A stretch of DNA of 64,000 nucleotides from a virus (taxonomy: Duplodnaviria; Heunggongvirae; Uroviricota; Caudoviricetes): the IMG/VR virus record IMGVR_UViG_3300025896_000021, one strand, 5' to 3'. A model generated the notes under the pieces. That model was not told the origin of the DNA, did not search any database, and was given only the letters and a program-made list of their open reading frames with translations. Positions 8,537 to 61,790 of the stretch are shown piece by piece. Made by a program: the position numbers and the translations under genes. Each line of letters begins with the position of its first letter. Position 1 is the first letter of the stretch.

Positions 8537-9464
8537 TGTAGCAGATTTAGATTGCATCTACCTAAGCTATGATGAACCGCAGAAGGAAGAATTCTGGGTT
8601 AAGATTAAGAACATGGTGCCTTGGGCACAACGAGTAGATGGTGTCAAGGGTAGTGATGCAGCACACAAAGCCGCTGCAGAGGCAAGCGACACTGAACGAT
8701 TTATCTTAATCGACGGGGACAACATGCCCAATGAGTCTTTCTTCAATATGCAGTTAGACTTCACTGACAAAGACAAGAACTATGAACTAGCGCAGTATCG
8801 TTGGAAAGCTATCAACAGCGTTAACGGATTACGTTATGGCAACGGTGGCATGAGTTCATGGACAAAATCTTATGTAATGAACATGAAGACCCATGAAGCT
8901 AGCGACGGCAATGACAACAACACAGTAGACTTTTGTTTAGACAGTAGCGACAACTTGTATTGGTCAATGCATGATTGCTACTCTACTACCTATCCCAACA
9001 TGACAAGTTTTCAAGCATGGCGTGCAGGGTTTCGTGAAGGTGTCAAGATGTGTCTAGTCAACGGAGCAAAGCCTTCAGTTGAACAGTTTAAAGATAGTGT
9101 TGCGAATAGGAACATGAACAACTTGACGATCTGGCACAACGTGGGCATGGATGCAGAGAATGGTGACTGGGCAATGTATGGTGCTAGACTAGGAACATAC
9201 ATGACTATGCTTACTGATTGGAATCCACAAGAAGTTCAATGGTTTGACAACTTTGCAAAACTATGGGACGAATACAAAGATAGAGATCCAAGATTCTCTA
9301 GTGAATTCTTTGGTGGAGCATTGGGTGACAAATTAGGATTGCCTATCTGTACACTAAATGCAGAACAAAGTAAATTCTTTAAACGTCACTATAACACTGA
9401 CAAACACAACATGGGTCCTCTCGTTAGAGAGATGGACGTAATTAGAAACATAGAGGGCTGGTAA
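8517..9464 (+). CDS. GT2-like nucleotide-sugar transferase
   Basis: ILIDGDN DxD motif; AWRAGFREGVKM; related to the C-terminal domain of 19380..22874. Confidence 0.55.
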   Translation: MSTNIVDVADLDCIYLSYDEPQKEEFWVKIKNMVPWAQRVDGVKGSDAAHKAAAEASDTERFILIDGDNMPNESFFNMQLDFTDKDKNYELAQYRWKAINSVNGLRYGNGGMSSWTKSYVMNMKTHEASDGNDNNTVDFCLDSSDNLYWSMHDCYSTTYPNMTSFQAWRAGFREGVKMCLVNGAKPSVEQFKDSVANRNMNNLTIWHNVGMDAENGDWAMYGARLGTYMTMLTDWNPQEVQWFDNFAKLWDEYKDRDPRFSSEFFGGALGDKLGLPICTLNAEQSKFFKRHYNTDKHNMGPLVREMDVIRNIEGW

Positions 9465-10882
9465 TGTCAGACTTAGACGGTAATTATAAAAAGCATCTTT
9501 TAGATGTTAAACAAAAAGTTGATGCAGTCAGTGATAGCTTCTGTGCAGCTAAATGGAAGCAAGTAACGATTCACTTGCAGAATGGTCATACTCATAGTTG
9601 CCATCACCCAAAGACTCACGTAGTCCCGTTGGATGAGATTGCAATTAATCCGTCAGCATTGCACAACACTAACTTTAAAAAAGAACAACGCAAGATGATG
9701 CTTGAAGGTAGTCGTCCAAGTGAATGTGACTACTGCTGGAGAGTAGAAGATAGCAACAAGGACAACGATGTATTCAGTGACAGATACACTAAGAGCGCAG
9801 ACCCTTGGGCAGCACCCTTCATTGAAGAAATTGCTAGCAAGAAATGGGATGACAACGTTGATCCTAGTTATGTAGAGGTAGCATTTAGTAGCACGTGTAA
9901 TTTCAAGTGCAGCTATTGCAGCCCTGACGTTAGCAGCAAGTGGATGGAAGAAATTGAACGCTATGGAGCATATCCTACGAGCACTAACTTCAATAACTTA
10001 GACAACATTAGTCAAGCTAAGAAGATTCCTATCAGAAACAAAGACTACAACCCGTATGTTGAATCATTCTGGAAGTGGTGGCCACAACTGTATACTAGTC
10101 TAAAGACATTTAGAATCACAGGTGGAGAGCCATTACTAGCTAAAGATACGTTTCAAGTGCTTGACTATATCATTGAGCATCCTAACCCAGAACTTGAACT
10201 GAATATCAACAGTAACTTGTGCGTACCTGACGAGTTATTAAAGAAGTTTGTAGAGAAGATGAAACGTATTCAGGGTGAAGGACTTATCAAAGAGTTTAAG
10301 CTATATACCTCTGCTGAGGCACATGGTAAAAAAGCCGAGTACATCCGTAACGGACTAGACTACAACAAATGGTTAGACAACTGCAACTATGTATTGCGTG
10401 ATATTCCACAGAGTAAGTTAACTGTGATGGCTACTTACAATGCATTGAGTGTGACAAGTTTCACTCCATTCATGCAAGATATTCTAGACTTACGCAACAC
10501 ATACAACACAGGTGCTGACAGACGCAACCCGGTATCACTTGATACACCTTACTTGCGTTGGCCTTGGCATCAAAGTATGTTCATTCTTACTCCTGACTAT
10601 CTTCCTCAGATTCAAGATCAGGTTACGTTTATGTATCGCAACAAAGAACACATGATGTGGCCACCTACATGTGGTTATGGATTCTACGAACACGAGATTA
10701 ATAGAATGGAACGACTGTACTATGTCGCCAGGGATGAAAAGATCCCTGAGTTAGAACTGATTCGTAATCGCAAAGACTTTGTATCATTTGTAGATGAACA
10801 TGACAAGCGCAGGGGTACAGACTTCTTAGGTACTTTCCCTGAGATGGAAGAATTTTATAGAATGGCTAAAGAATTAAAATGA
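9464..10882 (+). CDS. Radical SAM protein with N-terminal twitch/SPASM-like domain
   Basis: CNFKCSYC (CxxxCxxC), TGGEP, N-terminal FC...SCH...ECDYCW. Confidence 0.9.
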   Translation: MSDLDGNYKKHLLDVKQKVDAVSDSFCAAKWKQVTIHLQNGHTHSCHHPKTHVVPLDEIAINPSALHNTNFKKEQRKMMLEGSRPSECDYCWRVEDSNKDNDVFSDRYTKSADPWAAPFIEEIASKKWDDNVDPSYVEVAFSSTCNFKCSYCSPDVSSKWMEEIERYGAYPTSTNFNNLDNISQAKKIPIRNKDYNPYVESFWKWWPQLYTSLKTFRITGGEPLLAKDTFQVLDYIIEHPNPELELNINSNLCVPDELLKKFVEKMKRIQGEGLIKEFKLYTSAEAHGKKAEYIRNGLDYNKWLDNCNYVLRDIPQSKLTVMATYNALSVTSFTPFMQDILDLRNTYNTGADRRNPVSLDTPYLRWPWHQSMFILTPDYLPQIQDQVTFMYRNKEHMMWPPTCGYGFYEHEINRMERLYYVARDEKIPELELIRNRKDFVSFVDEHDKRRGTDFLGTFPEMEEFYRMAKELK

Positions 10883-12285
10883 GTAAAGAACTATTTCAGT
10901 GGCGTCAACGAGTATTAGACAGTGTTAGTCCCAGCTTCTGTGCTGCGAAGTGGCTCAACGCTACAATACATCTAGGTCACGGCTATACCCATAGCTGTCA
11001 CTTGCCTATCCCTCATCCTATTAACGTAGAGGAATTGAAGGATAACCCATCGGCTATTCATAATACTGCTCATAAGAAAGAGCAACGCACTAAAATGCTA
11101 GCAGGTGAGCGTCCAAGCGAGTGTGAATACTGCTGGAAGATCGAAGATATAGGACGTGAGAACATCAGTGATAGAGTGTATAAGAGTAAGCCCTACAAAG
11201 AAGCTGATATCATTCGCATAGCCAAAGCTGACCCACAGGATAATGTCAACTTAAAGACACTAGAGATTAGTTTCGACCGCACGTGTAACTTTGGATGTAG
11301 TTATTGCAATGCAGGGTACAGTACAACATGGGCTAAGGACATTAAAGACAATGGAATCTATCAAGGCCTCAAGAGTGATGGTGCAGGTGCTTATCAAAAT
11401 GATGGATCATGGACAGAACCCTACGGCAAGTTCAACGAAGGTAACCCCTATACTGAGGCATTCTTTAAATGGTGGCCTGAACTGAGTAAAGACTTAGAGG
11501 AACTACGAGTTACTGGTGGTGAGCCTACAATGAGCCATCATTTTTGGAAATTATGTGAGGAGATCAAGACGCAAGACTTGAAACACTTACGCTTTGCTAC
11601 GAATAGTAACCTAGGTATGAAGCGTTCATTACTAGAAGACTTGGTTATGTTCACTAAGGAAGCGAATATCAAAGAGTTCGACCTCTATACTAGTAATGAA
11701 GCGTACGGTGAGCAAGCTGAATACATCCGTGACGGTATGGACTATCAAGTATGGCGTGATAATTTGATATATTTCATGGAGAATGCTAAGTTTCGTAGTG
11801 TAACTATTATGATGACCATTACTAGCGTATGCTTATTCAGTATTACTGACTTTTTAGATGATATGATATTGCTAAAGAAACAGTATGGACATAATAGACC
11901 AATGGTTGATTTAAATATCCTGCGCTGGCCTAGTTTCATGAGCCCTATAGCATTGCCGGATCATATTAAAGAATATTGCAGAACGAATCTATTAAATTGG
12001 TTCACTGTCAATAGAGTACATTTAACTGAGGGCGAGAATGCGCAGATTCAACGACTGATTGATTATATTGAAGTAGTTGAAACTCCACACCGCCGTGCTG
12101 TAACTGATAAATCATATTTACATAATGATTTAAAGAGTTTCTACCAACAATATGATTTACGTAGGAATAAAGATATCAATGTATTTCCTGATATCTTTAC
12201 TGATTGGTTAAAAACTATTGAGATAGATAAAACAATTCCAATTAGACTGATCGGGAACGGAGCAATTACTAACTATGACAAGTAA
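10879..12285 (+). CDS. Radical SAM protein, tandem paralog
   Basis: CNFGCSYC, TGGEP, same twitch Cys pattern. Confidence 0.9.
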   Translation: MSKELFQWRQRVLDSVSPSFCAAKWLNATIHLGHGYTHSCHLPIPHPINVEELKDNPSAIHNTAHKKEQRTKMLAGERPSECEYCWKIEDIGRENISDRVYKSKPYKEADIIRIAKADPQDNVNLKTLEISFDRTCNFGCSYCNAGYSTTWAKDIKDNGIYQGLKSDGAGAYQNDGSWTEPYGKFNEGNPYTEAFFKWWPELSKDLEELRVTGGEPTMSHHFWKLCEEIKTQDLKHLRFATNSNLGMKRSLLEDLVMFTKEANIKEFDLYTSNEAYGEQAEYIRDGMDYQVWRDNLIYFMENAKFRSVTIMMTITSVCLFSITDFLDDMILLKKQYGHNRPMVDLNILRWPSFMSPIALPDHIKEYCRTNLLNWFTVNRVHLTEGENAQIQRLIDYIEVVETPHRRAVTDKSYLHNDLKSFYQQYDLRRNKDINVFPDIFTDWLKTIEIDKTIPIRLIGNGAITNYDK

Positions 12286-57511: not shown

Positions 57512-58190
57512 GCCAAAGCATACCTGTGAGTTTTGTCATCGTGAATTTGTGCGAGAACGAACATTAATCAGTCATCTATGTGAACAGAAGCAAAGATGGC
57601 TGAACAAAGATATCAAAGGTAACCGACTAGGCTTTCAGTGTTGGTTGCAGTTCTATACCAAGAACAGCATGAACCGAACTAAGAATAAGACCTATGAAGA
57701 ATTTATTAAGTCTGCATACTACACTGCCTTTGTAAAGTTTGGTACTTATTGTGGTGAAGTCAATGTAGTCAATGTAAGCCGCTTTGTTGATTGGTTACTC
57801 AAAGAAAATATCAAGCTAGACAACTGGCATAGTGATTCAGTTTATACTACCTTCTTGCAGGATTACCTTCGCAAAGAGGATCCGTTTGATGCGATACATC
57901 GTGGCATTGAGCATTCTATAGTATTAGCCAAAGCAGCAAACATTCAGTCACACGACATATTACGATTTGGGAATGTGAACAAAATCTGCTATGCCATAAC
58001 AACGGGCAAGATAAGTCCATGGATGTTGTATCAGAGCAACAGTGGTACCCATTTTCTAGATACTTTAAATCCAGACCATGTTAAAATGATCATAGAGTAC
58101 ATAGACCCGGAACAGTGGGCAATCAAATTTAAACGAGATCCTGAAGTTGCTAAACAAATCAAAGAGTTATTGGGGGCGGGAGGATATTAA
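57486..58190 (+). CDS. Hypothetical protein with N-terminal zinc finger
   Basis: CEFC...HLC; start uncertain. Confidence 0.65.
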   Translation: MKKIVATVEPKHTCEFCHREFVRERTLISHLCEQKQRWLNKDIKGNRLGFQCWLQFYTKNSMNRTKNKTYEEFIKSAYYTAFVKFGTYCGEVNVVNVSRFVDWLLKENIKLDNWHSDSVYTTFLQDYLRKEDPFDAIHRGIEHSIVLAKAANIQSHDILRFGNVNKICYAITTGKISPWMLYQSNSGTHFLDTLNPDHVKMIIEYIDPEQWAIKFKRDPEVAKQIKELLGAGGY

Positions 58191-58365
58191 GCATATAGCA
58201 GAGATTCCTTATACTAGAGTGCAACAGCATGAGGTGTTTGAATGGTTGCTAGTCAATTTAGGATTGCCCGGACACGATTATTATGTCAGACATGATTCTA
58301 CTACGTTAGCAGTACATTTTACAACAGAACAAAATTACATTTGGTTTATATTGAGGTGGTCGTAA
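58147..58365 (+). CDS. LRW-family small protein 1
   Basis: Ends FTTEQNYIWFILRWS; start uncertain. Confidence 0.6.
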   Translation: MLNKSKSYWGREDIKHIAEIPYTRVQQHEVFEWLLVNLGLPGHDYYVRHDSTTLAVHFTTEQNYIWFILRWS

Positions 58366-58658
58366 TGAACGAAAAAATGATTCACGAATTTGTACAACGC
58401 TACGGAGCCAGGGTAGATTACCAACATGGTCGTAGCAGCTTTGAAACCTATAGCAGGTCAATGAATTATTACGATGACCGTAAAAGTGTAGTAGATATTG
58501 AACTATCCAGGCAAGAATTTGAGCATTTAGTTGAAGCAGATCACCATGCAGAAGTTGACTATCGTGTTAGAAGCGAAGAAGCACGCCTGCGCAGTAAATA
58601 CCCTGCGTTGGAAACAGCATATAGCAAATACAAAATGTTATTGGAGCTATACAAATGA
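58365..58658 (+). CDS. Small hypothetical protein (YPAL-x-x-AY-x-x-YKML type)
   Basis: TAATG overlap; GAGGTG RBS. Confidence 0.75.
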   Translation: MNEKMIHEFVQRYGARVDYQHGRSSFETYSRSMNYYDDRKSVVDIELSRQEFEHLVEADHHAEVDYRVRSEEARLRSKYPALETAYSKYKMLLELYK

Positions 58659-59014
58659 ACGATCTGCTACCTTATCAACACGCACTATATGATAAACTGC
58701 AAGCAGGTGGATTTAAGCAAGGAGAACTAGTTGTCTTTGCCGCTGGTCGTCAAACCGGCAAGAGTATGCTCTATAAGACTATGCTTAATGAAATGTATGG
58801 ATCAATGACGAAACAACCTATTTTCTCGGTAAATGGCAAAGCAGAAGTAGATGGTGCAACTTGGTATACTGTACACTGCAATAGAGATATCAGTACATGG
58901 TTGCGTAATCAACCTAAAGAGTGGCATTATGAAGCATTAGCACACGGATGGAGTGGTTGTCAATTTGACATTCACGAAAAACTTTACACAATGTTGATAT
59001 TGCGATGGAGCTAA
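58655..59014 (+). CDS. LRW-family protein with N-terminal Walker A fragment
   Basis: LLPYQ...GGFKQGELVVFAAGRQTGKS; ends MLILRWS. Confidence 0.75.
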   Translation: MNDLLPYQHALYDKLQAGGFKQGELVVFAAGRQTGKSMLYKTMLNEMYGSMTKQPIFSVNGKAEVDGATWYTVHCNRDISTWLRNQPKEWHYEALAHGWSGCQFDIHEKLYTMLILRWS

Positions 59015-59253
59015 AACTAAGTGAAGGCAGAGTCTCGGGGTCACGATACTATACAGTTGATCCTAACCCAAATTGGGATCCTTATTGGTACAATCAAGGT
59101 TGGTTTGATATGGAAATTTGGTGTCTGACGCAATTTGGTCCAACTCCGAATGATGGTGTGTGGACACCCGGTGCTCGTTGGTATATGAACAATAGAAAAT
59201 TTTGGTTCCATAATGAAGCAGACTTATCTTGGTTTATATTGAGGTGGTCATGA
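59005..59253 (+). CDS. LRW-family small protein
   Basis: WCLTQFGP...FHNEADLSWFILRWS. Confidence 0.8.
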   Translation: MELKLSEGRVSGSRYYTVDPNPNWDPYWYNQGWFDMEIWCLTQFGPTPNDGVWTPGARWYMNNRKFWFHNEADLSWFILRWS

Positions 59254-59483
59254 GTAATACAGCAAGCTGGACAACATTCGGCAAGGATCGTTATCATCTC
59301 AACGGTGAGATGGAACGCTGGTGCCTAGACAATGTTGGGAATGGTGGTTGGACTTATAGTACTCCCGAAACTTGGGAAGGTATGGGTGGCAAAGTTTGGA
59401 TTATGCACAGCATGTTTGGTAACACTACCTTTGTATTTAAAGAGTCCAAACACTTAGCTTGGTTTATGTTGAGGTGGGAATGA
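59250..59483 (+). CDS. LRW-family small protein
   Basis: WCLDNVG...FKESKHLAWFMLRWE. Confidence 0.8.
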   Translation: MSNTASWTTFGKDRYHLNGEMERWCLDNVGNGGWTYSTPETWEGMGGKVWIMHSMFGNTTFVFKESKHLAWFMLRWE

Positions 59484-59698
59484 GTTCACTTGTAAGAATA
59501 AAAAACAAGAATGCAATAGCAGCAATGGATATAGTAAGAGAGTTGCGTGAGAAGGGGTATGTACAGGGAATTGATTTTGATTTTAATTACTATCATCAAG
59601 AATCCGATGATCCACAGGACATCACCGAGCAGAGACATACCTTATTCACTTTTTACAAAGAGGGGCTGGCAACATGGTTCAGTTTAAAGTACCTATGA
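59480..59698 (+). CDS. LRW-family small protein (LKY variant)
   Basis: FYKEGLATWFSLKYL. Confidence 0.75.
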   Translation: MSSLVRIKNKNAIAAMDIVRELREKGYVQGIDFDFNYYHQESDDPQDITEQRHTLFTFYKEGLATWFSLKYL

Positions 59699-59952
59699 CA
59701 TTAGAAGATGAGTTGGCGGCGACGGCGGGTAAGATCATGGCAGATGAAATTGACTGGGAAATTTTAGCTAACCTATTAGTTCAATCAGGCTGGTTTATGG
59801 TAGACTTAGATCATTACAGAGACCGTTACCAAAGTATTGACATTGAAACATGGATTGATGAAAACTGCAAGGGCAAATACAAGAAACACAGTAGAACATT
59901 CGTGTTTGAGAAGAAAGAAGATGCAGCTTGGTTTAAGTTAAGGTGGCTATGA
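59695..59952 (+). CDS. LRW-family protein with N-terminal gp23-like helix
   Basis: EDELAATAGKIMADEIDWEIL; ends FEKKEDAAWFKLRWL. Confidence 0.75.
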   Translation: MTLEDELAATAGKIMADEIDWEILANLLVQSGWFMVDLDHYRDRYQSIDIETWIDENCKGKYKKHSRTFVFEKKEDAAWFKLRWL

Positions 59953-60158
59953 GAGTATTGAAGAAAGAACTGTGGCCTTGCAAGGTAGAACTGGATCTAG
60001 ATCAAAGTCAGACCAAGTTGATAGAAATAGAAACTTGGCTAGGCGAACATTATGGTCCTTTAAAGAATCGCTGGAATGTGGTTTATCAATGGGACCATAC
60101 TGTATTTTATTTTCGGCAAGGCACTGATGCTACCATGTTTTCATTGAGGTGGGTATGA
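59949..60158 (+). CDS. LRW-family small protein
   Basis: WLGEHYG...FRQGTDATMFSLRWV. Confidence 0.78.
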   Translation: MRVLKKELWPCKVELDLDQSQTKLIEIETWLGEHYGPLKNRWNVVYQWDHTVFYFRQGTDATMFSLRWV

Positions 60159-60547
60159 TAGAATATATTAAAGACAAGTATTTGACTTGGCGTACTGGTG
60201 TTGATAAACAAACACGTGATCATCGTAAGTGGTATGATGAAACTGTTGTTCAACGTGCTAGTACGATTGAAAATATGTTTATGAACTTCAAGTACATACT
60301 GCCAGTATCTACGAATATATTTGATTTTTCTGAGCCGTTTGGTTGGTACCCCAACAAAGAATTTAGACAGTATATGTGGCCTAACCGAAAGTTAGATGAC
60401 TGTTCCGTGTATTACTTTGCCCGTGGCTATAGAGATAAGTGGGATGGTAAATTTTATATGAATGACTTGCGGCACGACGAAGACCAAGTGTTTGTAGCAA
60501 CTAACAATGAGGTAGATGCTATGATGATAACATTGAAATATTCATGA
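60155..60547 (+). CDS. LRW-family protein (LKY variant)
   Basis: NNEVDAMMITLKYS. Confidence 0.72.
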   Translation: MIEYIKDKYLTWRTGVDKQTRDHRKWYDETVVQRASTIENMFMNFKYILPVSTNIFDFSEPFGWYPNKEFRQYMWPNRKLDDCSVYYFARGYRDKWDGKFYMNDLRHDEDQVFVATNNEVDAMMITLKYS

Positions 60548-60888
60548 CAATAAGCAATTCCACAATTAATATGATTCGTAAGCAATTGCCAATTCTACTG
60601 GCAAAAGCTATTACAGGCGTGCAACCTATGACAGGCCCGGTTGGGGGACTCTTTAGAATGAAATATACCTATACTCCACAATCAAAGTATAAATTTACCC
60701 GTGCCAACTGGTATGTGGCAGAGTTCAACATTAAAGATTATACTGATGTTGTACATTGGTGTAGGGAACAGTTTGGTCCACATCCTCGTAATCCCGATGC
60801 TTGGAGTCGTTGGGAACACAAGTATGAAGATAAGATTTACTTCCGTGATGAGAAAGATTATGCTTGGTTCATGTTGAGGTGGTCGTGA
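60544..60888 (+). CDS. LRW-family protein with N-terminal major-capsid (Gol-like) fragment
   Basis: MIRKQLPILLAKAITGVQPMTGPVG; ends FRDEKDYAWFMLRWS. Confidence 0.8.
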   Translation: MTISNSTINMIRKQLPILLAKAITGVQPMTGPVGGLFRMKYTYTPQSKYKFTRANWYVAEFNIKDYTDVVHWCREQFGPHPRNPDAWSRWEHKYEDKIYFRDEKDYAWFMLRWS

Positions 60889-61136
60889 GAAAATTAATTC
60901 CAAATAATATAACTGTAACTGAACAGTTTCGTATCCGTACTCAGTTTGTTGGTATGGTTGGAAAATGGAAACAAAGTATTCTTACTACCACCAGCAAGAA
61001 ATATCTAGAGTTAGAGTTACAGTGGTTGGAGCGGGACAGCGGTGTTCGCTGTCATTATACTAACAATGGTGAATTGGTAGGATTTAAGTTAGTTGATGAA
61101 AAAATGTATGCTTGGTTTGTGCTGAGGTGGGCATAA
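60885..61136 (+). CDS. LRW-family small protein
   Basis: GTGA overlap; DEKMYAWFVLRWA. Confidence 0.75.
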   Translation: MRKLIPNNITVTEQFRIRTQFVGMVGKWKQSILTTTSKKYLELELQWLERDSGVRCHYTNNGELVGFKLVDEKMYAWFVLRWA

Positions 61137-61141
61137 GTAAC

Positions 61142-61396
61142 ATGACTATTAAATTTACTAGTACAGAGTGGGTAGGTGCTGAACCAGAAAACACTGACAT
61201 TGTGTTAAGATCAGAAGCAGGGTTAACTGGGAAGTTTACGGATTTTTCTAATGAAGTTTTTCTATGGTGCTTTGATAATGGCATTGAAGCAGATATGGTT
61301 GGTAAAAAATATAATAGTGATGACAATAGTGATTATAGTCTATGGAGAATTGAAAATGAACAGCACAGAACTTGGTTTATATTGAGGTGGGCATGA
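61142..61396 (+). CDS. LRW-family small protein
   Basis: WCFDNG...ENEQHRTWFILRWA. Confidence 0.78.
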   Translation: MTIKFTSTEWVGAEPENTDIVLRSEAGLTGKFTDFSNEVFLWCFDNGIEADMVGKKYNSDDNSDYSLWRIENEQHRTWFILRWA

Positions 61397-61605
61397 TCAA
61401 AAGACAATATAACAGATGGCGCTACGGCGACAATAAATCTTACTTTGATAACTTTGTTGATGCACATGGACCAGATGAAGTCATTGAAGATAAATTATTA
61501 TTCTATAAAGCAACTATAGGTAAAAGTAAGAATAAAAATCACAAACTAAATGTCAAGTGGCATGATCCAAAAATGTATGTGGTGTTTGTATTGAGGTGGG
61601 CATGA
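61393..61605 (+). CDS. LRW-family small protein
   Basis: DPKMYVVFVLRWA. Confidence 0.75.
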   Translation: MIKRQYNRWRYGDNKSYFDNFVDAHGPDEVIEDKLLFYKATIGKSKNKNHKLNVKWHDPKMYVVFVLRWA

Positions 61606-61790
61606 AATTACTGGAAGACTACTCAGTATCATTGAGCGCAGACAGATGGATCAAAATAAAAGAACAATTAACAAAAGTTGAATCTAATTCATTGGTGTCT
61701 ATTACTTGGACAGGTCCGTTTGAAAGAACCAGAATATTACGATTTAAATCTGAGAATGATGCATTGATATTTGTATTGAGGTGGTCGTGA
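61602..61790 (+). CDS. LRW-family small protein
   Basis: FKSENDALIFVLRWS. Confidence 0.75.
   Translation: MKLLEDYSVSLSADRWIKIKEQLTKVESNSLVSITWTGPFERTRILRFKSENDALIFVLRWS

Follow-up and report, generated by a model that had tools for sequence, protein, structure and literature searches.

The ORF that extends from 60544 to 60888 in the phage DNA analyzed here raises a simple question: what is a piece of a T4-type major capsid protein doing at the N-terminus of a protein of only 114 residues? The initial annotation of the window (the whole stretch of 64,000 nucleotides) had pointed to a Gol-like gp23 peptide at this N-terminus, had argued that the product is not itself a capsid protein, and had offered, by way of explanation, a decoy for capsid-sensing immunity, an EF-Tu-binding protein or a dominant-negative inhibitor of capsid assembly in related phages. 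The two descriptive statements stand, on evidence that is set out below. An explanation that is specific to the capsid or to EF-Tu is incomplete, because the carrier domain to which the capsid piece is attached also bears motifs of helicase, ribonucleotide reductase and DNA polymerase.

The capsid piece and its gene

The gp23 match on which the initial annotation had staked its reading is significant: residues 6-51 match the Pfam family Gp23 (PF07068) with a score of 38.2 bits, against a curated cut-off of 24.4 bits (E 1.5e-9), and the ORF also matches PHROG 138, the major head protein (E 3.5e-9). In a phmmer comparison with solved structures, residues 5-44 align with residues 93-132 of T4 gp23 (6uzc numbering) without a gap (E 0.004); the identical residues are the ones listed at the outset, namely M, R, P, L, A, I, GVQPM, P and G, and the alignment takes in homology to the 29-residue Gol core of gp23. 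When 50,697 phage records are searched by tblastn, capsid genes are the sole matches, and coverage of the 114-residue query stays below 80% in every record. Judged by its sequence, the N-terminus is truly homologous to the Gol/N-arm region of gp23.

In T4, Gol is the most conserved part of gp23; the 29-residue peptide binds EF-Tu and activates the Lit protease, EF-Tu being bound at domains II/III and cleaved at Gly59-Ile60 (PMC3014915). Residues 66-105 of T4 gp23 are disordered inside the unexpanded shell, where they probably lie on the scaffold, and later, as the N-arm/N-fist, they are engaged in contacts both inside a capsomer and from one capsomer to another (PMC9546572).

The capsid piece is short, although slightly longer than the approximately 35 residues first proposed. 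It amounts to about 40-46 residues in the 114-residue ORF and to about 60 residues in longer homologues, in which it reaches back to the N-terminus of mature gp23*. (In terms of the family profile, the match by which a Gp23-type capsid protein is recognized is present in the ORF at positions 7-51 of 376 only.) The full body of the HK97 fold (P domain, A domain and spine helix; about 400-520 residues) is absent, and since the P, A and insertion domains are missing the product cannot build a shell. It is best regarded as a protein that belongs to the Gp23 family by the sequence of its tail alone and that is not a capsid protein. The homologous stretch keeps GVQPM and the flanking P, L, A, I, P and G of T4 Gol. 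On the other hand, T4 Gol is internal to a capsid protein of 521 residues, whereas its counterpart here is the N-terminus of a non-structural protein of 114 residues, joined to an unrelated domain.

The gene overlaps its neighbors at both ends. At 60544-60547 (ATGA) its start codon shares bases with the stop of the upstream gene, and at the other end its TGA stop (60886-60888) does so with the GTG (60885) that begins the next gene, which codes for a protein with the same C-terminal domain, designated LRW. The start at 60544 is backed by the N-terminal sequence MT(T)I(S/T)N, which is kept in homologues P0002-P0006. The codons of the terminal L-R-W (TTGAGGTGG) serve also as the Shine-Dalgarno site of the following gene, and this overlap of coding sequence with Shine-Dalgarno site, together with the stop/start overlap, is common to junctions throughout the array (Table 1). 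Promoter- and terminator-like sites in the window show no excess over shuffled sequences, which fits a single long, translationally coupled transcript.

Table 1. Features of the ORF and of its array, and matches of the tails that are found on LRW domains (SW, Smith-Waterman score)
Feature	Position	Strand	Match or description
gp23-fragment/LRW gene	60544..60888	+	complete, 114 aa; ORF and peptide as initially annotated
N-terminal module, residues 5-51	60556..60696	+	copy of gp23 N-arm/Gol, corresponding to T4 gp23 93-132 onward
C-terminal LRW carrier domain, residues ~48-114	60685..60885	+	beta-alpha-beta-beta-alpha; C-terminal WFMLRWS
Dual-use junction	60876..60888	+	R-W codons within GAGGTGG, a Shine-Dalgarno-like site; direct sequence reading
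Tandem array of at least 11 LRW genes, 60544-60888 included	58105..61790	+	LRW profile E 1e-10 to 5e-22
Sister gene with helicase P-loop tail	58655-59014	+	SW 72 vs null maximum 47
Sister gene with tail from capsid residues ~188-228	59674-59952	+	profile E 4.7e-5 to 5e-3, four clade capsid proteins
Capsid N-arm tail			clade capsid proteins; SW 74-128 vs null maxima 44-56
FY.PY.P tail			capsid C-terminus; SW 48-51 vs 42-43
P-loop tail			H1/Walker-A of DnaB-type helicases, same position in five; SW 58-72 vs about 47-57
TNLC.EI..P tail			ribonucleotide reductase active-site cysteine loop; SW up to 66, null maximum 70, 95th percentile 50
K.LLNS.YG tail			DNA polymerase B motif B; SW 54-59 vs 51

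The LRW array lies among replication genes, outside any structural module. Elsewhere the window encodes the large subunit of terminase, SSB, a UvsX-like recombinase, helicases, and radical-SAM and sugar enzymes; tblastn finds no full capsid gene within its 64 kb, and blastn of the window against known phages yields no match. Its terminase is 43-51% identical to the terminases of Sinorhizobium phage Phosso (genome size 469 kb), Pseudomonas phage PA5oct (287 kb), Agrobacterium phage Atu_ph07 (490 kb) and Vibrio phage 2.275.O (349 kb). Iyer et al. (PMC7824862) assign Atu_ph07 to the jumbo phages of the gp23 type, "group 2", and within these to subgroup 2.2. Each of the four cultured relatives has one intact Gp23-family capsid gene, coding for about 390-414 residues. 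A split or intron-interrupted capsid gene is out as the origin of the fragment, since the intact capsid genes of the relatives lie far from the ORFs that bear fragments. Tandem, translationally coupled LRW arrays, with 11-17 paralogues each, are found in the window and at four related loci (L002, L003, L008 and L010); the phages that have such arrays are jumbo phages whose core genes are of the T4 type.

The LRW carrier and its tails

AlphaFold2, supplied with a 50-sequence alignment, models a confident domain from about residue 57 to residue 114, with pLDDT 83-92 for residues 61-114 and 77 for residues 51-60. Confidence is low for the tail, which is modeled as a helix at residues 6-22 (pLDDT 55-70) followed by residues 23-56 with no regular structure. 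The prediction, in other words, is of a flexible tail on a small folded alpha/beta domain. The LRW domain of the ORF has no match in Pfam or among the PHROGs, and the ten sister genes are likewise without a significant family. A Foldseek comparison of the LRW model with the PDB gives nothing at E < 1. The best VIA match is the N-terminal domain of E. coli Pol II (Z 5.4, rmsd 1.8 A over 50 residues), and KH domains are matched with Z 4.4-4.7, all of these values lying within the stated background of the tool. Searches of BFVD and the ESM Atlas with the LRW domain return uncharacterized proteins of uncultured phages only.

As a sequence family the domain is abundant. A profile made from the 11 paralogues of the window retrieves 1166 cluster representatives at E <= 0.001 among 1.84 billion, nearly all of them 54-155 residues long and with the domain at the extreme C-terminus. 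The ORF has the C-terminal pattern of approximately 62 residues, W-C-x4-G ... F-x-F-x-[DE]-x2-D-x2-[WF]-F-x-L-R-W, that defines the domain (profile E 2.8e-20). By profile, LRW copies number at least 20 in Phosso and 2 in PA5oct, while Atu_ph07 and Vibrio phage 2.275.O have none. LRW is a small, stable, generic carrier domain.

What the carrier bears is variable. LRW domains that are 83-87% identical to that of 60544-60888 have quite different tails; that is, tails are swapped as cassettes between near-identical carriers. Alignment of these tails with the core proteins of the four cultured relatives (Smith-Waterman, with shuffled controls) leads to the assignments that are listed in Table 1, and the repertoire is narrow, coming from the most conserved motifs of core proteins. 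Profiles of the individual modules recover the right protein and the right place in a test set of 121 sequences, with E values of 4e-4 to 0.04 for reductases, 0.006-0.014 for polymerases and 2e-5 to 0.012 for the capsid C-terminus. The profile of the 59674-59952 tail (this ORF and its orthologues) matches the same position in all four clade capsid proteins. For the reductase tail, the main support for the assignment comes from the module profile and not from the Smith-Waterman score. The short ungapped P-loop profile is ambiguous on its own (terminase 0.037, helicase 0.11). Terminase is the less likely source of the P-loop tail: BLASTP against the terminase of the window finds RQ.GKS only, and contextual alignments favor a DnaB-type helicase.

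At least one of the five motif types is present in 99 of the 111 close-family tails of 15 or more residues (89%), whereas shuffled sequences average 0.9 and never exceed 5. The capsid N-arm is by far the most frequent, with 71 occurrences among the 111 tails, followed by the reductase motif (25), the P-loop (20), the polymerase motif (9) and the capsid C-terminus (7). Three different capsid segments are found on LRW carriers: the N-arm, residues ~188-228 (the spine-helix region) and the C-terminus. Motifs are often concatenated within a tail, with joints at residues that are common to both parents, as is the case for NEI in NLCNEI/ANEIMGVQPM.

Among the cultured phages, Phosso encodes an LRW domain with a capsid C-terminal piece (XYS97328.1). 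A Phosso ORF at ~182236-182855 places the N-arm piece on another C-terminal part, and the start annotated for this ORF lies downstream of that piece. Two IMG/VR genomes, of 290 and 524 kb, contain a small open frame (176-177 residues) that matches the gp23 N-arm; in the 290-kb genome the N-arm copy is on a non-LRW C-terminal part. Several partial matches to Pol B and RNR, or shorter open frames, occur in Atu_ph07 and Phosso.

Conservation, selection and lineage

A search of 5.8 billion proteins finds at least 330 homologues of the ORF, 62-200 residues long and on contigs of up to 364 kb; many of these are full-length, 50-80% identical and flagged as Gp23. The protein cluster of the 60544-60888 ORF sits on a contig of 359,393 bp, and similar arrays on contigs of 267 kb (ENA) and 347.5 kb (NCBI) contain syntenic copies. 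Across 50 aligned sequences, residues I23 and V26 of the tail are invariant, and G25, Q27, P28, M29, P16, A20 and F37 are conserved in at least 90%. In the LRW domain of the same sequences, W72, C73, F77, G78, W87, R89, W90, D105, F109, L111 and W113 are invariant. Pairwise dN/dS (Nei-Gojobori) is 0.13-0.21 for the LRW domain and, in more distant pairs, 0.20-0.56 for the N-terminal module, with dS saturated in most of the pairs compared; in the closest pair (the window and L010), it is 1.1 for the N-terminal module and 0.14 for LRW. The synonymous codons of GVQPM differ between orthologues, so that the motif is kept at the level of protein and not of DNA. Conservation of GVQPM as nucleotide sequence, for example as an endonuclease site or an RNA element, is ruled out by the same variation.

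The carrier, then, is strongly constrained, a few residues of the tail are fixed, and the rest of the tail is fast-changing or exchanged. The initial annotation had entertained an unexpressed remnant, with dN/dS near 1 and absent from relatives. Relatives turn out to be plentiful, and a dN/dS of about 1 is confined to the non-motif positions of the tail in the closest pair. With hundreds of homologues, purifying selection on its carrier and invariant motif residues, the gene is no dead remnant.

A further question is whether the capsid piece follows the capsid protein of its own kind. The reference for this comparison is a set of 200 clade capsid proteins and not the resident capsid protein; a search with the Phosso capsid protein gives 8000 matches, and none of the 120 listed is on the 359,393-bp contig, while a search for longer proteins with the ORF as query finds none. 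Clade capsid proteins are very highly conserved (80-99% identity), and GVQPM is followed in the 200, almost without exception, by TGPV(A/G)QIHTLRVRY. In 75 fragments of the LRW family, H at position 8 after GVQPM is replaced by F (68%), and L at position 10 mostly by M. F at position 8 is also found in T4 (QVFALR) and in cyanophage P-HM1 (LIFAMR); at position 10, P-HM1 has M and T4 has L. Fragments of Phosso score higher against cyanophage gp23 than against the Phosso capsid protein. The capsid piece appears neither to be homogenized with the capsid protein of its clade nor to track it. Over the 40-residue core, identities are 13-16 of 40 to clade capsid proteins and 19 of 40 to a cyanophage. 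Lineage of origin does not separate over the 40-residue Gol core.

What the displayed motifs might do

The explanation that ranks first, tentative and on balance doubtful as it is, holds that the tail is a decoy, acting by molecular mimicry on a host sensor that reads motifs. The displayed tail would compete with freshly synthesized gp23 for a partner that recognizes a linear motif, and the likeliest partner would be a host abortive-infection sensor of short capsid motifs, of the Lit/EF-Tu/Gol or CapRel type. The 60544-60888 protein would act as a non-activating decoy, and its sister genes might do likewise for motifs of helicase, ribonucleotide reductase and polymerase. Lit and CapRel have been described as sensing capsid protein by way of short sequence motifs (PMC13581612; PMC9712102); bacteria also have sensors for DNA polymerase and for helicase/RecA-type ATPases, and these targets overlap with the sources of the sister modules. 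A decoy is favored by the significant Gol/N-arm homology and the predicted flexible tail on a folded carrier, by the fixation of motif residues despite saturated dS and varying synonymous sites, by the presence of a core motif in 99 of 111 tails, and by the placement of the array among replication instead of structural genes. Fast change at the other positions of the tail (dN/dS 0.2-1.1) fits an arms race.

On the other hand, a Gol-like peptide is sufficient to activate Lit if peptide and protease are both overproduced (PMC9712102), so that a copy could harm the phage instead of protecting it. Moreover, most known sensors of capsid, polymerase and helicase (the Avs families) wrap around whole folds and do not read linear motifs (PMC13581612). 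In native reductase and polymerase the active-site motifs lie buried, where a sensor would hardly be expected to look for them. Finally, a decoy should follow the phage's own capsid protein, and the fragments have F after GVQPM where clade capsid proteins have H. This failure of the capsid piece to follow the clade capsid, together with the existence of three capsid pieces, favors a weapon directed against co-infecting T4-like phages: capsid pieces would insert into, or cap, assembling capsomers or contacts with the scaffold of a phage with a classical gp23, in a dominant-negative manner, and spare the resident capsid. The corresponding segment of gp23 (residues 66-105) contacts the scaffold and, later, capsomers (PMC9546572), and the fragments have F and M, and in this are T4- or cyanophage-like, where the clade capsid has invariant H and L. 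Such a weapon is nevertheless unlikely: pieces of P-loop, reductase active site and polymerase motif B are not assembly interfaces, which leaves the family as a whole unexplained, and, upstream of GVQPM, the Gol core resembles clade MCPs and a cyanophage gp23 to about the same degree. It is also unlikely that LRW alone is functional and that the tails are by-products of shuffling, generated by microhomology-mediated recombination with phage genes of high conservation and subject to nearly neutral drift. The high dN/dS that the closest pair gives for the N-terminal module (1.1, against 0.14 for LRW) can be read in this way, as can the quite different tails of LRW domains that are 83-87% identical, the joining of motifs on shared residues such as NEI, and the conserved junction repeat at each gene end, which could drive recombination. 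Neutral capture should, however, sample at random and be followed by decay, whereas 89% of tails are explained by no more than five motif types; across 50 sequences the motif residues are either invariant or conserved above 90%, with dS saturated in most pairs, and the gp23-LRW gene is kept in the syntenic arrays of distant relatives.

Other explanations are less probable than these. Binding of the tail to domains II/III of EF-Tu might tune or shield translation, for instance from defense proteases whose target is EF-Tu, with no need for capsid sensing. Gol binds EF-Tu and inhibits its GTPase, and it has been suggested that T4-related phages make this contact in general (PMC3014915); besides Lit, type IV Thoeris effectors cut EF-Tu, and the core residues of Gol are kept in the tail. 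Modulation of EF-Tu is all the same improbable, in that it leaves the sister modules of the carrier without an explanation. In phage metagenomes, inteins and split inteins are concentrated in helicases of the gp41 type, NrdA/NrdJ and polymerases, frequently at P-loops or active sites. The motifs of the tails (helicase P-loop, reductase active site, polymerase motifs and capsid core) would coincide with classic insertion sites of inteins and homing endonucleases, and the cassettes might be relics of such selfish elements, baits for them or defenses against them. Selfish elements accumulate in jumbo phages (PMC7824862), and the partial Pol B and RNR matches or shorter frames in Atu_ph07 and Phosso are consistent with their involvement. 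Conservation is seen, however, at the amino-acid and not at the nucleotide level, LRW proteins have no nuclease or intein motifs, and the fragments have no fixed cut point; a connection of this kind is accordingly still harder to credit than an effect on EF-Tu. Least probable of all is a capsid-targeting tag, by which the N-arm copy would bind the scaffold core and so bring the LRW protein into the prohead, to stay inside or to be ejected. The N-terminal region of gp23 does probably contact the scaffolding core of the unexpanded head (PMC9546572), but tails with enzyme motifs cannot target capsids, the gene lies outside the structural module, and the two LRW paralogues of PA5oct are without the virion mass-spectrometry flag that nearby structural genes carry.

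A broader proposal covers decoys as well as interfering peptides, and is to be given somewhat more credence, if less than an even chance: jumbo T4-like phages may keep arrays of interchangeable motif-display cassettes that are tuned to non-self, serving either as decoys against bacterial immunity that reads motifs or as sequence-specific interfering peptides against competitors. Several known systems are comparable in part. DSAD1 is a small phage protein, a competitive inhibitor of a defense (DSR2) that senses a structural protein, the tail tube (PMC11087589), and the LRW proteins would resemble it in concept. What would set the LRW proteins apart from inhibitors of the DSAD1 type is that the displayed peptide is a homologue of the trigger. 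We know of no inhibitor of such defenses that is derived from the sequence of the trigger itself, and to our knowledge neither trigger-derived decoys nor anti-competitor interfering peptides have been described for any virus of bacteria. The literature searched contains nothing relevant on capsid-derived decoys. The integrated decoys of plant NLRs resemble the LRW proteins in that a fragment of the target is grafted on an unrelated module in an expanded, fast-shuffling family, but those are host receptors with signaling domains, whereas these are phage proteins of 60-150 residues without a known effector domain. In the hyperplastic regions of T4-type genomes, small tandem genes shuffle by way of short repeated regulatory cassettes (PeSL). 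Tandem small genes, a conserved short repeat with expression signals and possible recombination are common to both arrangements; in the LRW arrays, in contrast, the repeat is inside coding sequence (the LRW codons being the Shine-Dalgarno site), and the units that are shuffled are tails with core motifs. A search of Pfam, PHROGs, PDB, BFVD and the literature found no description of the LRW domain or of core motifs grafted on a common carrier. The architecture appears to lie outside the known kinds, and mimicry is its proposed function.

The proteins that serve as sources of the tails are proteins that bacterial immunity is now known to sense. If mimicry is indeed what the tails are for, this would be the first phage to use pieces of the conserved proteins of its own kind as decoys or weapons; the tails would single out the linear epitopes, in capsid, helicase, polymerase and reductase, that count in conflicts of phage with host or of phage with phage, and a function would be assigned to a large "dark" block of small genes in jumbo phages (1166 clusters, 11-20 copies per genome). 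The idea is directly testable with the cultured carriers Phosso and PA5oct, and the LRW carrier may be a natural, ready-made scaffold for peptide display. Even if the tails should be neutral, the assembly of genes from motif-sized fragments of essential genes would be an unusual route of gene birth.

Tails of the sister genes and their junctions

The tail of one LRW gene of the array (that is, the segment joined to its small C-terminal LRW carrier domain) is a copy of residues ~188-228 of the clade's capsid proteins (..EIDWEIL..). A profile built from four orthologues of this tail matches all four clade capsid proteins at the same position (E 4.7e-5 to 5e-3), and matches nothing besides them. 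Another sister gene carries a copy of the H1/Walker-A region of a DnaB-type replicative helicase (GGFKQGELVVFAAGRQTGKS); aligned with the helicase of the related locus L010, this tail scores 72, against a null maximum of 47. Orthologues of the helicase-tail gene are present at L010 and at a second related locus with an LRW array, L008.

Stop and start codons of the LRW genes overlap (ATGA/GTGA). The conserved gene junction is likely to be a crossover point for cassette exchange.

Features of the window and of the Phosso loci
Feature	Location	Strand	Basis or detail
LRW gene with second capsid segment as tail	window 59674-59952	+	orthologue profile
LRW gene with helicase-derived tail	window 58655-59014	+	Smith-Waterman alignment
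LRW gene junctions	window 58105-61790	+	final codons TTG AGG TGG are the next gene's Shine-Dalgarno site
Two adjacent radical-SAM proteins, ~470 aa each	window 9464-12285	+	
Open frame with gp23 N-arm/Gol-like piece	L025:4236-4856 (Phosso PV764938.1 ~182236-182855)		Pfam Gp23, 37.5 bits
XYS97328.1 (Phosso), 126 aa	L026:2924-3304	-	capsid C-terminal segment on LRW domain

Capsid pieces in Phosso

The annotated start of the Phosso coding sequence XYS97433.1, at 182439, is probably placed too far downstream, because the open frame begins further upstream and there encodes a gp23 N-arm/Gol-like piece. The C-terminal part of this frame is not an LRW domain. (The Phosso fragment ORF is flanked by radical-SAM genes, as are found in the window; such genes might be connected with the small-protein arrays, perhaps through modification of peptides.) XYS97328.1 has an LRW domain (profile E 6e-5), and its tail is a C-terminal capsid segment (YKG..DAAVFYTPYVPL ... 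PRVRFSPRF); the protein scores higher with the gp23 of one cyanophage than with Phosso's own capsid protein.

Partial gene matches in relatives and metagenomic tail variants

In Atu_ph07 and Phosso (L016, L027, L033, L037-L042), searches for DNA polymerase B and for ribonucleotide reductase recover multiple incomplete matches or open frames of reduced length; polymerase B, for example, appears in Atu_ph07 as frames of 418 and 578 aa. Such genes may be split, an arrangement that is known for some T4-like phages.

Searching metagenomes with the LRW profile yields additional tail variants on LRW carriers (P0270, P0312 and P0293). One of these tails begins its motif series with an NPCGEI loop, as in class II reductases, and continues with the C-terminal motif of the capsid protein; in another, a different P-loop (RDSGKT) comes before a polymerase-like ..LNSAYG.. 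motif. The same profile matches 5-7 stretches of two long repeat proteins, P0260 (1966 aa) and P0323 (1176 aa), with repeats such as ..EIQSWCEQNFG..; these repeats may match by chance, or they may be a distant, repeated version of the domain's helix-loop portion.
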